Shown: piece by piece, positions 13,076-42,385 of the stretch
Numbering within the stretch: the first letter of the stretch is position 1
Layout of the letters: every line of letters starts with the position of its first letter
Assembly (NCBI RefSeq): GCF_036365525.1
Contig: NC_090374.1
Location: forward strand, 102,077,682 to 102,141,681
Source of the DNA: Heterodontus francisci
Lineage: Eukaryota
DNA length: 64,000 bases
Direction: 5' to 3'
Position numbers and translations under genes: made by a program
Notes under the pieces: generated by a model
What the model was told of the DNA's origin: nothing
Database searches by the model: none
Seen by the model: the letters and a program-made list of their open reading frames with translations, nothing else

Positions 13076-13147
13076 TTAGAATTAGAATTAGAATATTACA
13101 GCGCAGTACAGGCCCTTCGGCCCTCGATGTTGCGCCGATCATCTGAC

Positions 13148-16039
13148 CTACACTATTCCATTTACATCCATATGTCTATCCAATGACCACTTAAATGCCC
13201 TTAAAGTTGGCGAGTCTACTACTGTTGCAGGCAGGGCGTTCCACGCCCCTACTACTCTCTGCGTAAAGAAACTACCTCTGACATCTGTCCTATATCTTTC
13301 ACCCCTCAACTTAAAGCTATGTCCCCTCGTGTTTGCCATCCTCATCCGAGGAAAAAGACTCTCACTATCCACCCTATCTAACCCTCTGATTATCTTGTAT
13401 GTCTCTATTAAGTCACCTCTCCTCCTCCTTCCCTCTAACGAAAACAACCCCAAGTCCCTCAGCCTTTCCTCGTAAGACCTTCCTTCCATACCAGGCAACA
13501 TCCTAGTAAATCTCCTCTGCACCCTTTCCAAAGCTTCGACATCCTTCCTATAATGCGGTGACCAGAACTGCACGCAATACTCCAGGTGCGGCCTCACCAG
13601 AGTTTTGTACAGCTGCATCATGACCTCGTGGCTCCGAAACTCGATCCCCCTACTAATAAAGGCTAACACACCATATGCCTTCTTAACAGCCCTATTAACC
13701 TGGGTAGCAACTTTCAGGGATTTATGTACCTGGATACCAAGATCTCTCTGCTCATCTACACTACCAAGAATCTTCCCATTAGCCCAGTACTCTGCATTGC
13801 TGTTACTCCTTCCAAAGTGAATCACCTCACACTTCTCCGCATTAAACTCCATTTGCCATCTCTCAGCCCAGCTCTGCAGCCTATCTATGTCCCTCTGTAC
13901 CCTACAACACCCTTCGACACTATCCACAACTCCACCGACCTTCGTGTCATCCGCAAATTTACTAACCCACCCTTCTACACCCTCATCCAGGTCATTTATA
14001 AAAATGACAAACAGCAGTGGCCCCAAAACAGAACCTTGCGGTACACCACTAGTAACTAAACTCCAGGATGAACATTTGCCATCAACCACCACCCTCTGTC
14101 TTCTTTCAGCTAGCCAATTTCTGATCCAAAGCTCTAAATCACCTTCAACCCCATACTTGCGTATTTTCTGCAATAGCCTACCGTGGGGAACCTTATCAAA
14201 CGCCTTACTGAAATCCATATACACCACATCCACGGCTTTACCCTCATCCACCTGTTTGGTCACCTTCTCGAAAAACTCAATAAGGTTTGTGAGGCACGAC
14301 CTACCTTTCACAAAACCGTGCTGACTATCGCAAATGAACTTATTCTTTTCAAGATGATTATAAATCCTGTCTCTTATAACCTTTTCCAACATTTTACCCA
14401 CAACCGAAGTAAGGCTCACAGGTCTATAATTACCAGGGCTGTCTCTACTCCCCTTCTTGAACAAGGGGACAACATTTGCTATCCTCCAGTCCTCCGGCAC
14501 TACTCCTGTCGACAATGACGACTTAAAGATCAACAACAACGGCTCTGCAATCTCCTCCCTGGCTTCCCAGAGAATCCTAGGATAAATCCCATCTGGCCCA
14601 GGGGACTTATCTATTTTCACTCTTTCCAAAATTGCTAACACCTCCTCCTTGTGAATCTCAATCCCATCTAGCCTAGTAGGCTGTATCTCAGTAATCCCCT
14701 CGGCAACATTTTCTTTTTCTACTGTAAATACTGACGAAAAATATTCATTTAATGCTTCCCCTATCTCCTCTGATTCCGCACACAACTTCCCACTACTATC
14801 CTTGATTGGCCCTGTTCTAACTCTTATCATTCGTTTATTCCTGATATACCTATAGAAAGCCTTAGGGTTTTCTTTGATCCTATCCGCCAATGACTTCTCG
14901 TGTCCTCTCCTTGCTCTTCTTAGCCCTCCCTTTAGATCCTTCCTGGCTAGCTTGTAACTCTCAAGCGCCCTAACTGAGCCTTCACGTCTCATCCTAACAT
15001 AAGCCGCCCTCTTCCTCTTGACAAGCGCTTCAACTTCTTGAGTAAACCACGGCTCCCTCGCTCGACAACTTCCTCCCTGCCTGACAGGTACATACTTATC
15101 AAGGACACGCATTAGCTGCTCCTTGAATAAGCTCCACATTTCGTTTGTGCCCATCCCCTGCAGTTTCCTTCCCCATCCTACACATCCTAAATCTTGCCTA
15201 ATTGCGTCATAATTTCCTTTCCCCCAGCTATAATTCTTGCCCTGCGGTATATACCTGTCCCTGCCCATCGCTAAGGTAAACCTAACCGAATTGTGATCAC
15301 TATCGCCAAAGTGCTCACCTACATCTAAATCGAACACCTGGCCGGGTTCATTACCCAGTACCAAATCCAATGTGGCATCGCCCCTGGTTGGCCTGTCCAC
15401 ATACTGTGTCAGAAAACCCTCCTGCACACACTGGACAAAAACAGACCCATCTAAAGTACTCGAACTATAGTATTTCCAGTCAATATTTGGAAAGTTAAAG
15501 TCCCCCATAACCACTACCCTGTTACTCTCGCTCCTGTCGAGAATCATCTTCGCTATCCTTTCCTCTACATCTCTGGAACTATTCGGAGGTCTATAGAAAA
15601 CTCCCAACAGGGTGACCTCTCCTCTCCTGTTTCTAACCTCGGCCCATACTACCTCAGTAGACGAGTCCTCAAACGTCCTTTCTGCCGCTGTAATACTTTC
15701 CTTGATTAACAATGCCACACCCCCCCCTCTTTTACCCTCTTCTCTGTTCTTACTGAAACATCTAAATCCCGGAACCTGCAACATCCATTCCTGCCCCTGC
15801 TCTACCCATGTCTCTGAAATGGCCACAACATCAGGATCCCAGGTACCAACCCATGCTGCAAGCTCACCCACCTTATTCCGGATGCTCCTGGCGTTGAAGT
15901 AGACACACTTTAAACCAAGTTCTTGCTTGCCAGTGCCCTCTTGCGTCCCTGTAACCTTATCCCCTACCTCACTACTCTCAACAGCCTGTACACTGGAACT
16001 ACAATTTAGGTTCCCATTCCCCTGCTGATTTAGTTTAAA
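13148..16039 (-). CDS. CR1 ORF2 (APE endonuclease + reverse transcriptase); frame is open back to the ORF1 overlap
   Basis: The 907-aa ORF 13148-15871 (GTG start) extends stop-free upstream to 16039 and includes LKCVYFNARSIRNK. Motifs [36 protein letters not shown]. Confidence 0.95.
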   Translation of the reverse strand, partial: FKLNQQGNGNLNCSSSVQAVESSEVGDKVTGTQEGTGKQELGLKCVYFNARSIRNKVGELAAWVGTWDPDVVAISETWVEQGQEWMLQVPGFRCFSKNREEGKRGGGVALLIKESITAAERTFEDSSTEVVWAEVRNRRGEVTLLGVFYRPPNSSRDVEERIAKMILDRSESNRVVVMGDFNFPNIDWKYYSSSTLDGSVFVQCVQEGFLTQYVDRPTRGDATLDLVLGNEPGQVFDLDVGEHFGDSDHNSVRFTLAMGRDRYIPQGKNYSWGKGNYDAIRQDLGCVGWGRKLQGMGTNEMWSLFKEQLMRVLDKYVPVRQGGSCRAREPWFTQEVEALVKRKRAAYVRMRREGSVRALESYKLARKDLKGGLRRARRGHEKSLADRIKENPKAFYRYIRNKRMIRVRTGPIKDSSGKLCAESEEIGEALNEYFSSVFTVEKENVAEGITEIQPTRLDGIEIHKEEVLAILERVKIDKSPGPDGIYPRILWEAREEIAEPLLLIFKSSLSTGVVPEDWRIANVVPLFKKGSRDSPGNYRPVSLTSVVGKMLEKVIRDRIYNHLEKNKFICDSQHGFVKGRSCLTNLIEFFEKVTKQVDEGKAVDVVYMDFSKAFDKVPHGRLLQKIRKYGVEGDLELWIRNWLAERRQRVVVDGKCSSWSLVTSGVPQGSVLGPLLFVIFINDLDEGVEGWVSKFADDTKVGGVVDSVEGCCRVQRDIDRLQSWAERWQMEFNAEKCEVIHFGRSNSNAEYWANGKILGSVDEQRDLGIQVHKSLKVATQVNRAVKKAYGVLAFISRGIEFRSHEVMMQLYKTLVRPHLEYCVQFWSPHYRKDVEALERVQRRFTRMLPGMEGRSYEERLRDLGLFSLEGRRRRGDLIETYKIIRGLDRVDSESLFPRMRMANTRGHSFKLRGERYRTDVRGSFFTQRVVGAWNALPATVVDSPTLRAFKWSLDRHMDVNGIV

Positions 16040-16965
16040 CCCCCCCGAAGAGCACTAACAAATCTCCCCCCCAGGATATTGGTACCCTTCTGGTTCAGGT
16101 GAAGACCATCCTGTTTGTAGAGGTCCCACCTACCCCAGAAAGAGCCCCAATTATCCAGGAAACCAAAACCCTCCCTCCTACACCATCCCTGCAGCCACGT
16201 GATCAACTCCTCTCTCTCCCTATTCCTCTCTTCGCTAGCACGTGGCACAGGCAACAACTCAGAGATAACAACTCTGGTTGTTCTCGCTCTAAGCTTCCAC
16301 CCTAGCTCCCTGAATTTCTGCCTTAAATCCCCATCTCTCTTCCTACCTATGTCGTTGGTGCCTATGTGGACCACGACTTGGGGGTGCTCCCCCTCCCCCT
16401 TAAGGATCCCAAAAACACGATCGGAGACATCACGTACCCTGGCACCTGGGAGGCAACACACCAACCGTGAGTCTCTCTCGTTCCCACAGAACCTCCTATC
16501 TGTTCCCCTAACTATGGAGTCCCCAATGACTAATGCTCTGCTCCTCTTCCCTTTTCCCTTCTGAGCAACAGGGACAGACTCTGTGCCAGAGACCTGCACC
16601 CCATTGCTTACCCCTGGTAAGTCGTCCCCCCCAACAGTATCCAAAACGGTATACCTGTTGTTGAGGGAAACGGCCACAGGGGATCCCTGCACTGCCTGCT
16701 GGTTCCCTTTCCTTCCCCTGACGGTAACCCATCTACCTACTTCTTTTACCTGAGGTGTGACTGCCTCCCTATAACTCCTGTCAATAATCCCCTCCGCCTC
16801 CCGAATGATCCGAAGTTCATCCAGCTCCAGCTCCAGTTCCCTAACGCGGTCTGCGAGGAGCTGGAGTTGGGTGCACTTCCCGCAGATGTAGTCAGCAGGG
16901 ACACTCTTGGCGACCCCTACCTCCCACATTCTGCAGGAGGAACATACAACTGCCTTTACCTCCAT
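16030..16965 (-). CDS. CR1 ORF1: zinc finger, coiled coil/leucine zipper and SGNH esterase
   Basis: ATG at 16965. CSSC...CGKC; LQLLADRVRELELELDEL; SGNH blocks GDSIVRG, LPGA, HIGTND, DGLHLN. Confidence 0.93.
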   Translation of the reverse strand: MEVKAVVCSSCRMWEVGVAKSVPADYICGKCTQLQLLADRVRELELELDELRIIREAEGIIDRSYREAVTPQVKEVGRWVTVRGRKGNQQAVQGSPVAVSLNNRYTVLDTVGGDDLPGVSNGVQVSGTESVPVAQKGKGKRSRALVIGDSIVRGTDRRFCGNERDSRLVCCLPGARVRDVSDRVFGILKGEGEHPQVVVHIGTNDIGRKRDGDLRQKFRELGWKLRARTTRVVISELLPVPRASEERNREREELITWLQGWCRREGFGFLDNWGSFWGRWDLYKQDGLHLNQKGTNILGGRFVSALRGGLN

Positions 16966-17168
16966 TCCCACTATTCTAGATTCCCAATAAATCTACTGAA
17001 AAACCAAACGAAAAAAAAAAAATTCAAAACTTGTTCGCTTAGCAATCCGACGGACTGAACTTTTTAAATAAAAAGCTTACCTTATCAACACACTAGAGTC
17101 CTTTTTTTTTTGGTTCGAGGAGGAGGGTGGGTGGGAGACACTACACGTGTAGTGTCTCGGGTACTGCC

Positions 17169-17423
17169 ACTGCCCAAATAAATAGTTTTCCCCTACCCAG
17201 CAGTCCCCGGTCCTCCGAAACAAAAAAGGGATTAACTTGTAACTTACTGAAATTGACCGCTCAGCTGAAAGTCCGCTCCGCACCTCGTTCTGTCAAGGCT
17301 GCTCCTCGCAAAAGACAAAGATTTTAAAACTGCCCAAATAAATAGTTTTCCCCTACCCAGCAGTCCCCGGTCCTCCGAAACAAAAAAGGGATTAACTTGT
17401 AACTTAAAAAAGGGATTAACTTG
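17169..17423. repeat. 78-bp direct repeat (17169-17246 and 17329-17406) plus a partial copy in the CR1 5' UTR
   Basis: ACTGCCCAAATAAATAG...GATTAACTTGTAACTTA occurs twice at a 160-bp period; AAAAAGGGATTAACTTG occurs again at the 5' junction. Confidence 0.9.
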
Positions 17424-18192
17424 TAAACTCTAGACAATAAAGGCCTAAACTGCTTAATCTCTCTTCATAAGACAAACCACTCATCTCTGGAATCAATCTC
17501 GTGAATCTCCTGTGAACTGCCTTCAATGCAGCTACATCCCTCCTCAAGTAAGGGGACCAAAACTGTACGCAATACTCCAGATGCGGTCTCACTAATACTT
17601 GTACAGTTGCAGCAACACTTCCATATTCTATTCCTTTAGCAATAAGTGCCAAAATTCCATTTGTCTTCCTTATTACCTACTGCACCTGCATGCTAATTTT
17701 CTGCGATTCATGCACAAAGACGCCCAGGTCCCTCTGCACCGAAGCACTCTGAAGTTTCTCCCCATTTAGATAATATTTTGCCTTTCTATTCTTCCGACCA
17801 AAATGGATAACCTCACACATAACCATGTTAAACTCCATCTGCCAAATTTTGGCCCATTCTCCTAACCTATCCATATCCATTTGTAAATTTCTTATTTCTT
17901 TATTGCAACTTACTGTCCCACCTATTTTAGTGTCATCTTCAAATTTGGCTATAGTACCTTCTATCCCTGCATCCAAGTCATTTATATAGATTGTAAATAG
18001 TTGGGGCCCGAAGACCAAACCCTGTGGCACCCCACTAGTTACATCTTGCCAACCAGAAAAGGACCCATTTATCCCGACTCTCTGTTTTCTGTTGGTTAGC
18101 CAATCCTCTATCCAAGCTAATAAATTGCCCCGAACCCCATGTGATCTTACCTTGTGTATTAACCTTTAGTGCGGCACCTTATCAAATGCCTT
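17424..18192 (-). mobile_element. Old CR1 (host), segment 2 of 3
   Basis: PQGLVFGPQLFTIYINDL, KFEDDTK, VRPHLEYCVQFWSP. Confidence 0.85.
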
Positions 18193-21100: not shown

Positions 21101-23042
21101 GGATGAAGCCCGTCTGGACCCGGGGACATGTCAGCCCGCAGCTCCATCAGTTTGCTCAGTACCGCTTCCCTGGTGATTGTAATTTCCCCAAGTTCCTCTC
21201 TTCCTTCCACCTCCTGACTTATAGCTATTGCCAGAATGTTTTTTGTACCCTCAATAGTGAAGACAGAAGCAAAATATTTGTTAATTTCATCTGCCATTTC
21301 CTTATTATCTACTATTTTCTCCCCAACCTCACTCTCTAGAGGACCAGCACTCACTTTACTTCCTCTTTTCTTTTTTAAATACCTGTAGAAACTTTTGCTA
21401 TCCGCTTTTACATTTCTAGCTAGCTTCCTCTCATACTCTAATTTATTTCTCCTGGTTAACCTTTTAGTCATTCTCTGCTGTTCTTTATATTCTGACCAAT
21501 TATTTGAACTACGACTCATCTTTGCGCAATTATATGCCTTATCCTTAAGTTTTATGCTTTCCTTAACTTTTTTAGTTTACCACATATGGTGGGTCCTTCC
21601 CTTAGAATTTTCCTTTGTAGTAGAAATATACTTATTCTGAGTATTTTGAAATCTCCCCTTAAATGTCTGCCACTGCTTCTCTATTGATCTATCTCCGATC
21701 CTAGTAACCCAGTTCACATCAGCTAGCTCAGCTTTCATGCCCACATAGTTGCCCCTATTCAAGTTTAAAATACTAGTCTGAGACCCACTCTTTTCTTTCA
21801 AACTGGATGTAAAATTCAATCATTTTGTTGTCGCTGCTACCTAGAGGTGCCTTTACTCTGAGGTCATTAATTAATCCTGTCACATTACACAATACCAAGT
21901 CTAATACAACCTACTCTCTGGTTGGTTCCAGAATGTGCTGCTCTAAGAAACTATCTCAAAAGCATTCTATGAACTCCTCTTCCAGGCTACTATTGCCAAT
22001 CTGATTTTTCCAGTTTATATGTCGATTAAAATCACCCATGATTATTGCCATCCCTTTATCACAAACACCTAATATTTCTTCTTGTATACTTCGTCCTACA
22101 TTGTGATTACTGTTCAGGGGCCTGTAGACCACTCCCACTAGTGACATCTTTCTCCTACTATTCTTCATCTCCACCCAAACCGTTTCTACATCCTGATGGC
22201 CTGAACCAGGATCATCTCTAACTATTGCACCAAGCCATTCTTGATTAACAGTGCTACCCCTCCACCTTTACCTAGCTTCCTATTCTTCTTGAACCTCACA
22301 TGCCCCTCAGTATTCAGGACCCAATCTTTGTCATCCTGCAGCTTCTGTAATGGCGAGCAGATCATATTTATTTACTTCAATGTGTGTCCTCAATTCATCT
22401 ACTTTTTTATGAATGCTTTGTGCATTCAAATACAGAGCCTTTAGTTTTGTCTTTTTGTTATCTTTGTAACATCTAGTCTTGACTGTTGGTGTGTATTAGG
22501 TTTTTTCTCTCTGACCCTTCCTGCCATTCTCTGACCTTCATTTCCCATATTACTATTCTGCTCTCCTGCCTTGACTCGACTCCTTAATTTGCTACATCTA
22601 ACCAAGCTTAATCCCTCTCCCCTCTTGTTTAGTTTAAAGCCCTCTCTACTTCCCTAGTTATACGGTTTGCTAGAACACTGGTACCAGTTCATATGCAGAG
22701 CGCCCCAACGGTACAGCCCCCACTTTCCCCAGTACTGGTGCCAGTGCCTGACAAACCGAAAGCCACTTCTCCCACACCAGTGTTTTGAGCCACGTATTCA
22801 TTTCACTAATCTTATATGCCTTCTGTCAATTGGCATGTGGCTCAGGTAATAATCCAGAGATTATTACCCTTGAGGTTCTGCTCTTCAATTTGGTGCCTAG
22901 TTCCTCATACTGTCTAAGTAGAACCTCTTTCCTAGTCCTACCTATGTCATTGGTACCTACGTGGACCACGACAACTGTATCTTCCCCCTCCCACTCCAAA
23001 TTCATGTCCAGCCCTGAGCAGATGTCCCAGACCCTGGCACCG
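21092..23042 (-). mobile_element. Decayed CR1 fragment spanning the ORF1 esterase C-terminus, the ORF1/ORF2 junction and the endonuclease
   Basis: VVVHVGTNDIG at about 22940-22970; ERALN* at 22629-22646; VYRPLNS, IMGDFN, SPGPDGLHPRVL. Confidence 0.85.
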
Positions 23043-32775: not shown

Positions 32776-35215
32776 TTCTTTTTTATAGCATCAGAAGACC
32801 ATAGAACTAGCAAATTGGGGTCACAAAACGACACAAAATATAGTTTAAAATGGTAAAACAAAGAAAACAGAAATCACCAACTGACATTCACTGCCTTCCA
32901 GTACTCAGTGTGAAACAGGTGTGGCAGATTTGATTTGCCATAGCTAAATACAAAATACACCTACTGAATTCGTGAGGAAAAACATAATGCATCATTGTAC
33001 ATTTGGGGTGCAAATGTTCTTGAAGAGACAGGCAATCTAATCAAAGCGTTGCTAAAATTCAAATTTTTTGCACGTATATCTAAACTAACACAGATTTTGC
33101 TCATATCCTTTTGTTCACATTTTTGCAGAGCTTATCCAGAACAAGGCCATTAAATCAAATCAGCAGCACCTAACTGCAGTACCACATTATAAAGCTGCAC
33201 TTTATCTTTCTAATGACCTACTAGTCAATTTTGAAGCAATTTTACTCAGCACTTGGCTTGTTCCCATTTCTATTGGCTGATTCCAGAGAACCAATCAGCT
33301 GGAGAAGACTGAGTGGCAGTATGAAGAAGAAATTCATTTTCATCTCATTTAATCCGACAAGTTATAAGTTAGTGAAGAGGTGTGGAAAAAAAGAAAAGAA
33401 TATTGAAGCAGAAGCAAAGATAGTTTGGCTTAGTTATAAATTATATTACCTACCTGCAAATGCTCAGAATAACATGGCAATTTTAATACAGCATGTGATT
33501 CCAAATTAGTTAAAACTATTCAGATAATTTATGTATTTATTATCTTCTCAGGCTGTCATTTAAAAAATGAAATAATAAAAACATGGGTGATTGTATAATA
33601 CCGAGAGTATTATTGGATTTCCTATACACTGCATTTTAAGGCTCATTGCTAATGCTGAGTAACATAGTTTGATCCAAGGGGAAATTAGAATTACATCTGA
33701 GATCACAGCACAGATGGCTGCTTTGGTTTTATTTCAAAATTTTCAATCATGATAAAAGGAGATTTCAAAACAGATGCAGGAATGAACAACAATACTTAAC
33801 ATTTCTTAATCTGAAGATTTTACAGACACAGATAAAAGAAAGGCAGATTTGCAGCATGCGTTAGATGTCAGACCTAACATTTTTACTTTCAAATAAACCT
33901 GCCTTGAAAGCATTCATGGTTCCATTTTATCATGTATCAGCATCTTTATGGGGTTCCTGCCAACTAGTCAACAGGAAGCTGCGCTTTAACAGCTTGGCAA
34001 CCACTTCATCTGTTTTTACCTTCATTTGTTTTTCGAAAAATGTATGCAAAGTAAGTGGTTGCCTGAAACTATAATAATATATTAGTAGTCATTTTCTACC
34101 AAATTAAAATCCTGCCATTCAAATTACCTTCAGGCTCAGCAGGAGCTGTAGAATTGTGATTTGATTAGAATGGGTCAGTGAAAGCTGAATTAGTGCACAA
34201 TTTAACCAAATGAGTTTCATTTTCAGATCCTACAGGAGCTGCATAGACCAGATGCAATGCTTTTAGCTGCTTCCATTATTTGTTAATTAACACAAAGGCT
34301 ACACATCCGTTATTGCCTCATGTCACTGATGAATTAAAGCTGCTGAAAACTTGTTATTGGATTCAATTCCATCTTCCAGAATGAAGGTGCTCATCATTCA
34401 GCCAGGGCAATGCTACAACTTGTCTCAGTGCCACTCAGTCAAGGAGGAGGGAAAATTAGCCAGAGTTTCTGCTCCTGATCACTATCCGCTGACTCCTCTT
34501 AGAACTATGCATGTCTGGATGCTGGATGAAGAGAGAATCCGATTCACCCAAGATAGCACACAGTCAGATGCCTTGCCCATATATACTATCTAGACTCACA
34601 GGTGAAGCGTAGGCCCCTTGAGTGACATTCCAGAAGGTGATGGTTCTTGTGCTGCTGTGCCTCAACAAGGAATCAGTTCCTTTGTAAGAGAAGGGAAGAA
34701 AAATATAGCAAAATTATGAAACTTCTCACCATAAGTTGCATTATCAGGCATCATAAACTATCCAGTATAAGAAACCATGCCAAAATGAGCAATGGGGAAT
34801 AAGTTTTCAATTAACATATCAGCTCTGTACAAATTTGTAACCAACGGGAAATTAAACCATGTGCTTGTAAAAAACGATGTGGCGTAAATTGTACTCTGCT
34901 TTCAAGTGGAAGATGGGCATCACGGACTCTCAAGTGCTTGAATTCGTACAGGATCTGACCAATTTTTATTAAAATAATATCGGATAGCTGCCTGTGTTGA
35001 ATGAGCACTGTCAGGCAGCTTGTTGATTGTGGGGGGCACAGGTGGGTGAAGTAGCAGAAATCCAGCAGCTTCTCCATGCAGCCAAACTGGAATTGGGACC
35101 TTAAGTGGGGGTGGGGAGAGGCTATTCTGGGGTGGAGCATAGAGGGATTGGGAGCATGTGGCGCCTTCTAGTGCTAGAGAAATTAGTGCAGTAACATGCT
35201 TTTCCATCTTTGCAG

Positions 35216-39070: not shown

Positions 39071-42000
39071 AGAACAAAGAACAAAGAACAGTACAGCACA
39101 GGAACAGGCCATCCAGCCCTCCAAGCCTGCGCCGATCTTGATGCCTGCCGAAACTAACACCTTCTGTACTTCCAGGGCCCATATCCCTCTATTCCCTACC
39201 TATTCATATATTTGCCAAGATGGCTCTTAAACGTCGCTATCGTATCTGCTTCCACCACCTCCCCTGGCACTCACCACCCTCTGTGTAAAAAACTTGCCTC
39301 GCACATCCCCTCTAAACTTTGCCCCTTGCACCTTAAACCTATGTCCCCTAGTAACTAACTCTTCCACCCTGGGAAAAAGCTTCTGACTATCCACTCTGTC
39401 CATGCCGCTCATAACTTTGTAAACCTCTATCATGTCGCCCCTCCACCTCCGTCGTTCCAGTGAAAACAATCCGAGATTTTCCAACGTCTCCTCATAGCTA
39501 ATGCCCTCCAGACCAGGCAACATCCTGGTAAACCTCCTCTGTACCCTCTCCAAAGCCTCCACGTCCTTCAGGTAGTGTGGCGACCAGAATTGCACGCAAT
39601 ATTCTAAGTGTGGCCTAACTAAGGTTCTGTACAGCTGCAACATGACTTGCCAATTTTTATACTCTATGCCACCTGCGTTGCCACTTTCAGTGATCTCTCT
39701 GCCTGTCAATACTCCTAAGGGTTCTGCCATTTACCTCCCACCTGCATTAGACCTTCCAAAATGCATTACCTCACATTTGTCCGGATTAAACTCCATCTGC
39801 CGTTTCTCCGCCCAAGTCTCCAACCGATCTATATCCTGCTGTATCCTCTGACAATCCTCACCACTATCTGCAACTCCACCAACCTTTGTGTCGTCTGCAA
39901 ACTTACGAGTCAGACCAGCTACATTTTCCTCCAAAATCATTTATATATACTACAAACAGCAAAGATCCCAGCACTGATCCCTGCGGAACACCATTAGTCA
40001 CATCCGTCCATTCAGAAAAACACCCATCCATTGTTACCCTCTGTCTTCTGTGACTGAACCAGTTCTGTATCCATCCTGCCAGCTCACCTCTGATCCCATG
40101 TGACTTCACCTTTTGTACCAGTCTGCCATGCGGGACCTTGTCAAAGGCTTTACTAAAGTCCAAATAGACAACATCCACCGCCCTTTCCTCATCAATCATC
40201 TTCGTCACTTCCTCAAAAAACTCAATCAAATTAGTAAGACACGACCTCCCCTTCACAAAACCATGCTGTCTCTCGCTAATAAGTTTGTTTGTTTCCAAAT
40301 GGGAGTAAATCCTGTCCCGAATAATCCTCTCCAATAGTTTCCCTACCACTGATGTAAGGCTCACCGGCCTATAATTTCCTGGATTATCCTTACCACCCTT
40401 CTTAAACAAAGGAACAACATTGGCTATTCTCCAGTCCTCTGGGACCTCACCTGTAGCCAATGAGGATGCAAAGATTTCTGTCAAGGCCCCAGCAATTTCT
40501 TCCCTTGCCTCCCTCAGTATTCTAGGGTAGATCCCATCAGGCCCTGGGGACTTATCTACCTTAATGCTTTGCAAGACACTCAACACCTCCTCCTTTTTGA
40601 TAATGAGATGACTGAGACTATCTGCACTCCCTTCCCTCGGCTTATCATCCACCAAGTCCTACTCCTTGGTGAATACTGATGTAAAGTACTCATTTCGCAC
40701 CTCACCCATTTCCTCTGGCTCCACGCATAGATTCCCATCTCTGTCCTTGAGTGGGCCAACCCTTTCCCTGGTTACCCTCTTGGTCTTTATATATGTATAA
40801 AAAGCCTTGGGATTTTCCTTAATCCTGTTTGCCAATGACTTTTCATGACCCCTTTTAGCCCTCCTAACTCCTTGCTTAAGTTCCTTCCTACTGTCGTTAT
40901 ATTCCTCAAGTGTTTCATCTGTTCCTCGCCTTCCAGCCCTTACAAATGCTTCCTTTTTCTTTTTGACTAGGCTCACAATATCCCGTGTTATCCAAGCTTC
41001 CCGAAACTTGCCAAACTTGTCTTTCTTCCTCACAGGAACATGCTGGTCCTGGATTCTAATCAGCTGACGTTTGAAAGACTCCCACATGTCAGCTGTTGAT
41101 TTACCCTCAAACAGCCGCCCCCAATCTAAATTCTTCAGTTCCTGCCTAATATTGTTATAATTAGCCTTCCCCCAATTTAGCACCTTCACCCGAGGACTAC
41201 TCTTATCCTTATCCACAAGTACCTTAAAACTTATGAAATTATGATCACTGCTCCCGAAATCTCCCCCACTGAAACTTCGACCACCTGGCCGGGCTCATTC
41301 TCCAATACCAGGTCCAGAATGGCCCCATCCCTAGTAGGACTATCTACATACTGTTTCAAGAAGCCCTCCTGGATGCTCCTCACAAATTCTGCCCCATCCA
41401 AGCCCCTAGCACTAAGTCCCAGTCAATATTGGGGAAGTTAAAATCACCCACTACTACAAACCTGTTACCTTTACATCTTTCCAAAATCTGTCTACATATC
41501 TGCTCCTCTACCTCCCGCTGGCTGTTGGGAGGCCTGTAGTAAACCCCCAACATCGTGACTGCACCCTTCCTATTCCTGAGCTCCACCCATATTGCCTCGC
41601 TGCATGACCTCTCTGAGGTGTGCTCCCGCAGTACAGCTGTGATATTCTCCTTAACCAGTAATGTAACTCCCCCACCCTTTTTACATCCCCCTCTATCCCG
41701 CCTGAAGCTTCTAAAGCCTGGAACATTTAGCTGCCAATCCTGCCCTTCCCTCAACCAAGTCTCTGTAATAGCAACAACATCATATTTCCAAGTACTAATC
41801 CAAGCTCTAAGTTCATCTGCCTTACCTGTTATACTTCTCACATTGAAACAAATGCACTTCAGACCACCAGTCCCGCTGTGCTCAGCAACATCTCCCTGCC
41901 TGCTCTTCCTCTTAGTCCTACTGGCCTTATTTACTATGTCCTCCTCATTTACTTCACTAGCTGTCCTACTGCTCTGGTTCCCACCCCCCTGCCACACTAG

Positions 42001-42385
42001 TTTAAACCCTCCCGAGTGACGCTAGCAAATCTTGCAGCCAGGATATTAGTGCCCCTCCAGTTTAGATGCAACCCGTCCTTCTTGTACAGGTCCCATCTGT
42101 CCCTGAAGAGAGCCCAATGGTCCAGATATCTGAAACCCTCCCATCGACACCAGCTGCTCAGCCACGTGTTTCTATTTCTAGCCTCACTGGCACGTGGCAC
42201 AGGGAGTAATCCAGAGATTACAACCCTAGAGGTCCTGTTTTTTAACTTACTACCTAACTCCCTAAACTCCCCCTGCAGGACCTCATCACTCTTCCTGCCT
42301 ATGTCATTGGTACCGATGTGTACCACAGCCTCTGGCTGTTCACCCTCCCCCTTCAGAATGCCCTCTGTCCGTTCAGAGACATCCT
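39071..42385 (-). mobile_element. CR1 LINE, 5'-truncated within ORF1, with disrupted ORF2
   Basis: ORF1 esterase (HIGTND, DGLHLN...EGLN*), ORF2 pieces at 41997-39227, (TTCTTTG)n tail. Confidence 0.93.

Follow-up and report, generated by a model that had tools for sequence, protein, structure and literature searches.

A deeply conserved, recoding-like signal at the ORF1/ORF2 junction of CR1 LINEs and its candidate role in -1 ribosomal frameshifting

We analyzed a 64,000-nucleotide stretch of DNA from Heterodontus francisci (NCBI RefSeq assembly GCF_036365525.1, contig NC_090374.1, positions 102,077,682 to 102,141,681), referred to here as the window, with positions counted from its first letter. 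The minus strand of the window carries a young, intact CR1 long interspersed nuclear element (LINE), inserted into the second open reading frame (ORF2) of an older CR1. The 40 scored genome matches to its ORF1/ORF2 junction region were 96 to 100% identical. An earlier note, made from the sequence alone, had proposed this junction as a site of programmed -1 ribosomal frameshifting. The features that bear on this proposal are as follows.

16030..16965, minus strand: CR1 ORF1, 311 amino acids (aa), from the ATG at 16965 to the stop TAA at 16032-16030
13148..16039, minus strand: ORF2 frame, 963 codons from the heptamer, with an APE endonuclease and a reverse transcriptase (RT) (Pfam)
16033..16039, minus strand: slippery heptamer T_TTA_AAC in the ORF1 phase
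16030..16032, minus strand: ORF1 stop TAA, abutting the heptamer on its 3' side (TAR in 16/16 lineages, see below)
16013..16022, minus strand: G-tract, GGGG at +11 to +14 and a weaker GGG at +18 to +20, a candidate structure-free 3' stimulator
16055..16057, minus strand: TAG closing the ORF2 frame upstream of the heptamer
15896..16032, minus strand: variable linker from the shift site to endonuclease motif I, open in the -1 frame only

The ORF1 product begins with CxxC motifs and a long helix, followed by a disordered linker and an SGNH esterase (Pfam PF13472 [GDSL/SGNH], E = 5e-14; LINE esterase structure 4C1B, E = 6e-43) that ends in Leu-Asn-stop. The same 963-codon ORF2 frame was present in a second genomic copy (L247), and a Pfam search detected no protease domain in ORF2. 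An esterase-type ORF1 is a criterion of the CR1 clade (PMC13343379; here and below, PMC accessions stand for passages of the papers concerned), and a 3' octamer has been described for avian CR1 (PMC2612034). The element has, besides this type of ORF1, an ORF2 with APE endonuclease and RT and, after its 3' untranslated region (UTR), a short-repeat tail (ATTCTA type) and not poly(A). We take it to be a CR1 on the basis of the esterase ORF1, the APE/RT ORF2, and the repeat tail; an esterase can occur in L2 elements as well. Among named ORF1 proteins, the closest came from cartilaginous fishes. A protein named as Pseudomonas aeruginosa (P0007) was 75% identical to the window ORF1 and is probably animal DNA in a bacterial assembly, and a mormyrid fish ORF1 (P0061; 43% identical) ends in Leu-Asn (LN).

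At the junction, ORF1 ends GGG GGT TTA AAC TAA, with T TTA AAC (16039-16033) forming an X_XXY_YYZ heptamer in the ORF1 phase, as the earlier note had read it. That note had also placed ORF2 in the -1 frame, stop-free to 13148, with a TAG six codons upstream and the first in-frame ATG beyond the endonuclease motifs YFNARSI and ISETW, and each of these readings held. No stop interrupts the -1 frame between 16054 and 13148 (968 codons, 963 of them from the heptamer), the TAG (16057-16055) is the sixth codon upstream, and the five open codons between TAG and heptamer include no ATG, CTG, GTG, TTG, or ACG. Counted from the heptamer, the Asn of endonuclease motif I (YFNARS) is codon 49 and the first ATG is codon 86 (15784); the single near-cognate codon of the window family between the junction and this motif is an ACG (codon 32). 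ORF2 overlaps ORF1 in the -1 frame, as at canonical -1 frameshift sites, and the overlap at the stop reads TAA AT, with AAT in frame, rather than the UAAUG of SART1-type coupling. Two further heptamers lie nearby. One (U_UUA_AAG, 15908-15914, minus strand), in the ORF2 phase just before endonuclease motif I of the window family, is probably due to chance, because other families use CTG or TTG there. The other (G_GGU_UUA, 16036-16042, minus strand), one codon upstream and overlapping, occurs in families A, C, E, F, and G only; since it is missing from families B and D and from other lineages, it is not the conserved signal.

The sequence TTTAAACTA occurs four times in the window (0.64 expected). 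Three of the occurrences mark ORF1/ORF2 junctions, each in a different CR1 family, and the remaining one (32841-32849) is no such junction. The two junctions outside the intact element are listed below; about 20 kb of the window is covered by ORF2-like matches.

22630..22638, minus strand: the same junction in a second and older CR1 family (B)
41998..42006, minus strand: the same junction in a third CR1 family (C), with the -1 frame open into the endonuclease without an ATG

Three DNA and four protein queries yielded a sample of 190 loci from the same genome. The junction was located in 188 of these, and in 169 the ORF1 stop was at the expected place, preceded by TTTAAAC in 163 copies and by a sequence one base off in each of the remaining 6. 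The other 19 copies had indels nearby or premature stops, and TTTAAACTR was missing within 30 nt in 16 of the 188. Given that inserted copies evolve neutrally, such counts show only the sequence of the source elements, and the test lies between lineages.

A metagenome scan returned 46 loci, 20 with the junction region, which read TTTAAAC in 17, GTTAAAC in one (L097), and TTTAAAT in one decayed copy (L110) and was unrecognizable in one (L131). We compiled 22 representatives (7 from the own genome and 15 from the metagenomes), excluding L095, L115, L117, L125, and L131 because their ORF1 ends were broken or unclear. Merging at an identity of at least 80% resulted in 16 lineages, for most of which identity was 40 to 75% across the final 150 nt of ORF1. 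These fell into three deep tree groups whose best named matches were cartilaginous-fish, turtle/squamate, and annelid proteins; L097 was without a close named match. By eye, the motifs of a stork protein (P0125) resemble those of the sauropsid-type group. Viral contigs yielded no relatives.

The last two ORF1 codons were TTA in 16/16 and AAC in 16/16 lineages, followed in all 16 by TAA or TAG. The base before TTA was T in 15 lineages, the exception being the G_TTA_AAC of L097, and this T was held across seven different amino acids among the representatives (background third positions, 178 of 640). The top-codon share at 38 control conserved ORF1 codon columns was 0.54 on average and 0.90 at most, none reaching 94%. 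At seven conserved control Leu columns, TTA made up 7 of 90 codons, AAC accounted for 35 of 79 Asn codons, and the equally invariant Leu of the H-L motif used five codons, with TTA once in 16. Because synonymous positions are fixed at Leu-Asn and free at the control codons, we conclude that the conserved constraint acts on nucleotides. The earlier note had named synonymous variation of the Leu-Asn codons and the preceding base as fatal to its proposal and had suggested aligning ORF1/ORF2 junctions across CR1 consensus sequences; the comparison between lineages gave the opposite of such variation, with the heptamer kept in 15 of 16. The junction is a real, deeply conserved, recoding-like signal.

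At the protein level, 93 of the 120 ORF1 homologues listed had a DGxHL motif; 83 ended 24 to 30 residues past it, and 81 of these 83 ended in LN. The named sources were sharks, rays, coelacanth, a mormyrid fish (teleost), frogs, turtles, and squamates. A further search that started from locus L093 extended to a group with named members from the annelid Ridgeia piscesae, in which LN ended 32 of the 41 proteins with 24- to 36-residue tails; in the rows printed, a further group with a 39-residue tail had the same end. L310 and N311 were invariant in an ORF1 alignment whose 34 rows were picked among LN-ending proteins. Although ORF1 tails come in lengths of 26, 31, or 39 aa and their inserts are unrelated, LN keeps its place next to the stop. 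Structure prediction puts the end of the last helix at residue 307, with a predicted local distance difference test score (pLDDT) below 50 for residues 309-311, and the solved esterase 4C1B aligns only up to profile position 317 of 321. Thus, LN tracks the stop and not the fold. The residue before LN takes 11 different values among the tails, and the residues that have no T-ending codon (Q, K, E, M, and W) stood there in 2 of 68 distinct tails versus 69 of 272 at the four upstream positions (Fisher p = 8e-6, uncorrected for relatedness); they were also low at positions -6 and -7 (3 and 4 of 68).

The endonuclease motif was found in 16 of the 22 representatives; 15 had it in the -1 frame, the exception, L113, carrying an indel. 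The 15 linkers (38 to 71 codons) contained 0 stops in 674 -1-frame codons versus 51 in frame 0 and 73 in frame +1, although the zero is flattered because the own-genome representatives were picked with open linkers. For this reason, family-wide linker lengths are the fairer check, and a single in-frame length was found in measurable copies of families A (24/24), C (28/28), G (17/17), and E (17/21). The family B linker is in frame by majority alignment columns; the out-of-frame length in 5 of its 9 measured copies (214 nt) was set aside, being mostly a one-base gain in an A run present in 9 of 28 old copies. Upstream of the heptamer, the -1 frame closes within 1 to 14 codons in 19 of the 22 representatives (37, 37, and 135 codons in the others). 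No start codon is conserved: 7 of 15 representatives lack an ATG before the endonuclease motif, no near-cognate start with a fixed position was found in the linkers of the 15, and the codon overlapping the stop takes 11 values (AAT, ATT, GTG, GTT, ATG, GGT, GAT, GTA, CTT, GAC, and GCT).

Downstream of the stop and seven variable bases, G occupies +11 to +15 in 16, 16, 15, 15, and 14 of the 16 lineages. Conservation is weaker at +18 to +20, and the tract is G5 in most lineages and GGGG in the window. Wobble bases fall at +11, in codons for Gln, Lys, Arg, Ala, and Leu, and at +14, in the next codon, usually Gly (linker background: wobble G, 125 of 427; GGG, 14 of 43 Gly codons). The earlier note had seen a weak stem here, GGAAC (16014-16010) with GTTCC (15999-15995). 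The stem is present, but it is no better than shuffles (z, +0.79; centroid unpaired; helix score equal to shuffles) and is not conserved: among the 19 sister-subfamily copies printed far enough to include its 3' arm, 14, counted by eye, carry an altered arm. We rejected the stem as a stimulator. Structure prediction downstream of the heptamer, which the note had recommended, found no conserved stem-loop or pseudoknot. Folding z was +0.6 to +1.0 at the three window junctions, and family D and L100 folded slightly better than shuffles. In 12 full-length copies from six families, the top five duplex sites for a long-range partner of the G-tract shared no downstream position, the few recurring sites lying upstream, inside the ORF1 coding sequence. 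No C-rich 5-mer column was common to two thirds of the 12 aligned ORF2s, six of which cover only about 1.2 to 1.5 kb. The sole Rfam match, to mir-378, was below threshold (33.8 of 80 bits) and was disregarded. The conserved 3' element is the unpaired, fixed-position G-tract and not the stem, and the tract is a candidate structure-free 3' stimulator. Given that the 3' stem-loop or pseudoknot of canonical -1 sites was not found, the CR1 junction is a variant rather than a canonical site; the downstream RNA structure of SART1-type coupling was not seen either (folding z near zero).

We propose that programmed -1 frameshifting at the array of U_UUA_AAC, stop codon, and G-tract yields an ORF1-ORF2 fusion of about 1,270 residues, and we put the probability of this reading at somewhat under four in five. 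Most ribosomes would terminate at the UAR and release the 311-aa ORF1 protein (ORF1p). A minority would slip, with tRNA-Leu and tRNA-Asn moving in tandem by -1 from UUA/AAC onto UUU/AAA, and would read on from ...G-G-L-N into L-N-Q-Q-G..., giving a rarer fusion of 311 + 961 = 1,272 aa. Slippage would set a Gag:Gag-Pol-like ratio and would tether the RT to the ORF1p multimer. The least certain step is the pause, which would probably come from the adjacent stop and the unpaired G-tract rather than from a pseudoknot; the tract would exert its effect either inside the mRNA entry channel or by way of a G-binding protein. Where a lineage has an AUG at the stop or close to it, reinitiation may occur as well. 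On mammalian ribosomes, U_UUA_AAC is among the most shift-prone heptamers, and there are structure-free 3' frameshift stimulators, including one located 11 nt 3' of its site (PMC5009743). The earlier note had suggested a Gag-Pol-like fusion, and the fixed Leu-Asn codons and the -1 frame kept open, from which we infer the shift itself, argue for it. The wider claim that a single ancient structure-free cassette (U_UUA_AAC, abutting UAR, and unpaired G5 at +11) serves CR1 elements from annelid to bird and that their sole RT is a coiled coil-esterase-endonuclease-RT polyprotein stands, in our estimation, at even odds.

Several observations besides the flattered stop count weigh against frameshifting. 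Because of their common ancestry, the 16 lineages do not count as independent draws, and the frog, turtle, and coelacanth elements are known here from the ORF1 protein ending alone. Linkers are noisier in family B than in A, C, E, and G and are noisy also in D (12 of 24 at length 213 and 4 at 210) and F (10 of 18 at 177 and 6 at 174). An ATG precedes the endonuclease motif in 8 of 15 representatives (codons 4, 5, 5, 5, 17, 22, 23, and 29), and a SART1-like UAAUG overlap occurs in 2 of 22 (family F and L122). The mean folding z over the 16 lineages was -0.29 (60 nt) and +0.10 (90 nt), and a local hairpin or pseudoknot stem 1 formed from the G-tract beat shuffles at the 5% level in 1 of 18 representatives (L100). 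No natural full-length in-frame ORF1-ORF2 fusion was among seven longer proteins, which is a weak test. Four proteins (P0037, P0121, P0187, and P0196) run from ORF1 into the linker; they look like gene models or indel copies and were not counted as support.

Known systems offer partial parallels. The coronavirus and arterivirus 1a/1b junctions (PMC5009743) are like that of CR1 in heptamer, phase, -1 overlap, and a polymerase in the shifted frame. The identity of UUUAAAC with the coronavirus slippery site, stated in the earlier note, is borne out by the U_UUA_AAC given for infectious bronchitis virus, and for equine arteritis virus a G_UU(A) variant is listed that agrees with the G_UUA_AAC of L097 (PMC5009743). 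These viral signals use a 3' pseudoknot, whereas CR1 has no conserved one, its stop abuts the heptamer, and its G-tract lies at +11. Retroviral and Ty3/gypsy gag-pol genes (e.g., Rous sarcoma virus; PMC5009743) combine an abundant structural product with a rare polymerase fusion, as proposed here for CR1, and in both cases nonshifted ribosomes stop soon past the site. Unlike retroviral gag-pol, CR1 is a non-long-terminal-repeat element with a coiled-coil/esterase ORF1, no detected protease domain, and no conserved RNA structure.

Among LINEs, a review states that a -1 frameshift is required for ORF2 of Dictyostelium TRE5-A and TRE3-A (PMC5911963; the passage gives neither shift site nor assay). 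These elements resemble CR1 in being APE-type LINEs with a -1 shift, proposed in our case, for ORF2 and differ in their unrelated ORF1 and amoebozoan host. The earlier note had set LINE reinitiation, as in SART1 and L1, against frameshifting; reinitiation is indeed described, but TRE5-A and TRE3-A furnish a LINE precedent for frameshifting. For Paramecium LINEs, +1 shifting, reinitiation, or readthrough has been suggested (PMC5405496). As for the G-tract, unpaired 3' stimulators are reported for Semliki Forest virus and Ty3, and PRRSV, the virus of porcine reproductive and respiratory syndrome, has a CCCANCUCC motif to which nsp1beta and PCBP bind, located 11 nt 3' of the shift site (PMC5009743). 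All are, like the CR1 tract, short motifs at a fixed spacing without intra-mRNA pairing, the PRRSV distance being similar; the CR1 motif is G-rich and a candidate stimulator without a known binding factor, whereas PRRSV CCCANCUCC is protein bound.

The main rival is termination-reinitiation, which we consider improbable: ribosomes would stop at the UAR and restart in the -1 frame on an AUG or non-AUG codon, the motif would be a reinitiation signal, and the ORF2 protein would be separate. Reinitiation has been described for SART1 (UAAUG) and proposed for L1 (PMC5972666, PMC3708506, PMC5009743). UAAUG coupling in SART1 and AUG-independent ORF2 initiation in L1 share with CR1 a bicistronic LINE mRNA and an ORF2 start near the ORF1 stop (PMC5972666, PMC5009743); both make a separate ORF2 protein with no slippery heptamer, whereas in CR1 it is the heptamer that is fixed, not the start codon. 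The stop always adjoins the conserved block, UAAUG is present in family F and L122, UAGUG in families C and D, and an ATG two bases past the stop in L098, L100, and L107. Such an ATG may be why the signal was overlooked in birds. The window family, in contrast, has AAT at the overlap and the one ACG at codon 32 before the endonuclease motif, and 11 different overlap codons are in use. A TGGGA resembling a termination upstream ribosome-binding site was rejected as a candidate, being found in only 6 of 15 representatives (-81 to -108) and being coding. Furthermore, reinitiation does not predict an in-phase X_XXY_YYZ pattern 5' of the stop. The two processes may coexist in family F, L122, and the lineages with a stop-proximal ATG. 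In family F (L197-L216), UAAUG directly follows the heptamer in 18 of 20 copies and ACG in 2, and the family is a natural test case for frameshift versus reinitiation.

Less probable still is a motif acting at the DNA or transcript level (a TATA-like internal promoter, an RT or endonuclease signal, or IRES-like ribosome entry), with ORF2 translated from its own start. TTTAAA is similar to a TATA box and to an L1-type nick site, and the fixed-distance G-tract could be a protein-binding site. However, such a motif leaves unexplained its codon phase with both ORFs, its exact placing at the ORF1 stop despite variable tail length, and the opening of the -1 frame from the heptamer itself, and 7 of 15 representatives would remain without an ATG.

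Correction of the frame at the RNA level, by transcriptional slippage at G, T, or A runs or by splicing, appears very unlikely. The window copy has a G7 run just before the heptamer, and the length of this run varies among genomic copies, but the run is missing from families B and D and from the sauropsid- and annelid-type lineages, and T3A3 is short for slippage. Edits would also enter new insertions, yet the heptamer is kept in the 163 of 169 intact-end copies noted above. Contigs of four runs on 15600-16600, three of them only guessed to be from RNA, listed no junction indel or ORF1-ORF2 joint, which is weak evidence: strand, starts, and levels are not readable from contigs, and 61 substitution rows and other rows lay outside the rows listed. 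One joint removes 90 nt within the linker (a single contig at depth 2.4, with non-GT-AG ends). An RNA-library contig (run X10, record 13; 15801-16262) has several A-to-G changes on the element strand, heptamer and stop included, and represents either RNA editing or a diverged copy.

The weakest alternative, that ORF1 needs a C-terminal Leu-Asn whose codons are common by descent or chance, accommodates the invariance of LN in the protein but is largely refuted by synonymous positions that are fixed here and free at the 38 control codons, as well as by a preceding wobble base fixed under seven amino acids and the position of LN outside the folded domain.

The remaining parts of the intact element are its UTRs.

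13077..13147, minus strand: short 3' UTR, which contains a GC-rich inverted repeat and the ATTCTA-type repeat tail (read directly)
16966..17426, minus strand: 5' UTR, with an exact 78-nt direct repeat and a 24-nt palindrome

By eye, the flanks at 13077 and about 17426 have a short AGTTTA in common, a possible target-site duplication. Within 17169-17426, the 78-nt repeat has a spacing of 160 nt, and a 21-nt unit occurs three times at the 5' end of the element; these repeats are possibly tandem promoter units or the result of a template jump. The perfect palindrome (17137-17160), centered on CACGTG, lies within a long predicted stem (17095-17225, minus strand; z, -1.79; 5 of 200 shuffles fold equally well). 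This region is present in L240 and L237, family E and, in part, family D have a related sequence, and no Rfam family matched it. A promoter element and a structured RNA are both conceivable roles for the palindrome.

The earlier note knew of no demonstration of frameshifting in vertebrate CR1, and we likewise found no description of it in the literature searched, key older primary CR1 papers and supplements being outside this scope. The passages of a 2026 CR1 survey (PMC13343379) do not mention frameshift, slippery, overlap, or translation; those of PMC3905857 and PMC4120745 do not mention frameshift, nor do those of PMC2734521 apart from "frame-shift" mutations. CR1 is not mentioned in the passages of PMC5009743, and the ribosomal-frameshift passages of PMC11835228 concern retroviruses. 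In our judgment, an earlier mention in the older literature is unlikely, though it would be no great surprise.

Most work on how ORF2 is translated from bicistronic LINE RNA concerns L1 and SART1, for which reinitiation is favored. Frameshifting would explain how the second CR1 gene, often without a start codon, is translated, and a conserved frameshift cassette is a short, mutable target that makes the question of LINE ORF2 translation testable. The junction motif also provides a simple anchor for annotating the ORF1/ORF2 boundary across animal CR1 families. If the proposal is true, CR1 ORF2 annotations that start at the first ATG would be wrong (in the window, this ATG lies past endonuclease motif I), the active CR1 enzyme would carry an esterase and a coiled coil, and ribosomes would set the ratio of ORF1p to RT, as they do in retroviruses. 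The tract of Gs would then be a natural case of frameshift stimulation that needs no RNA structure, making it a new type of 3' stimulator. In most vertebrate species, CR1 elements are the dominant retrotransposons (PMC13343379), and the dominant LINE of most vertebrates would be using a retrovirus-like strategy of expression.

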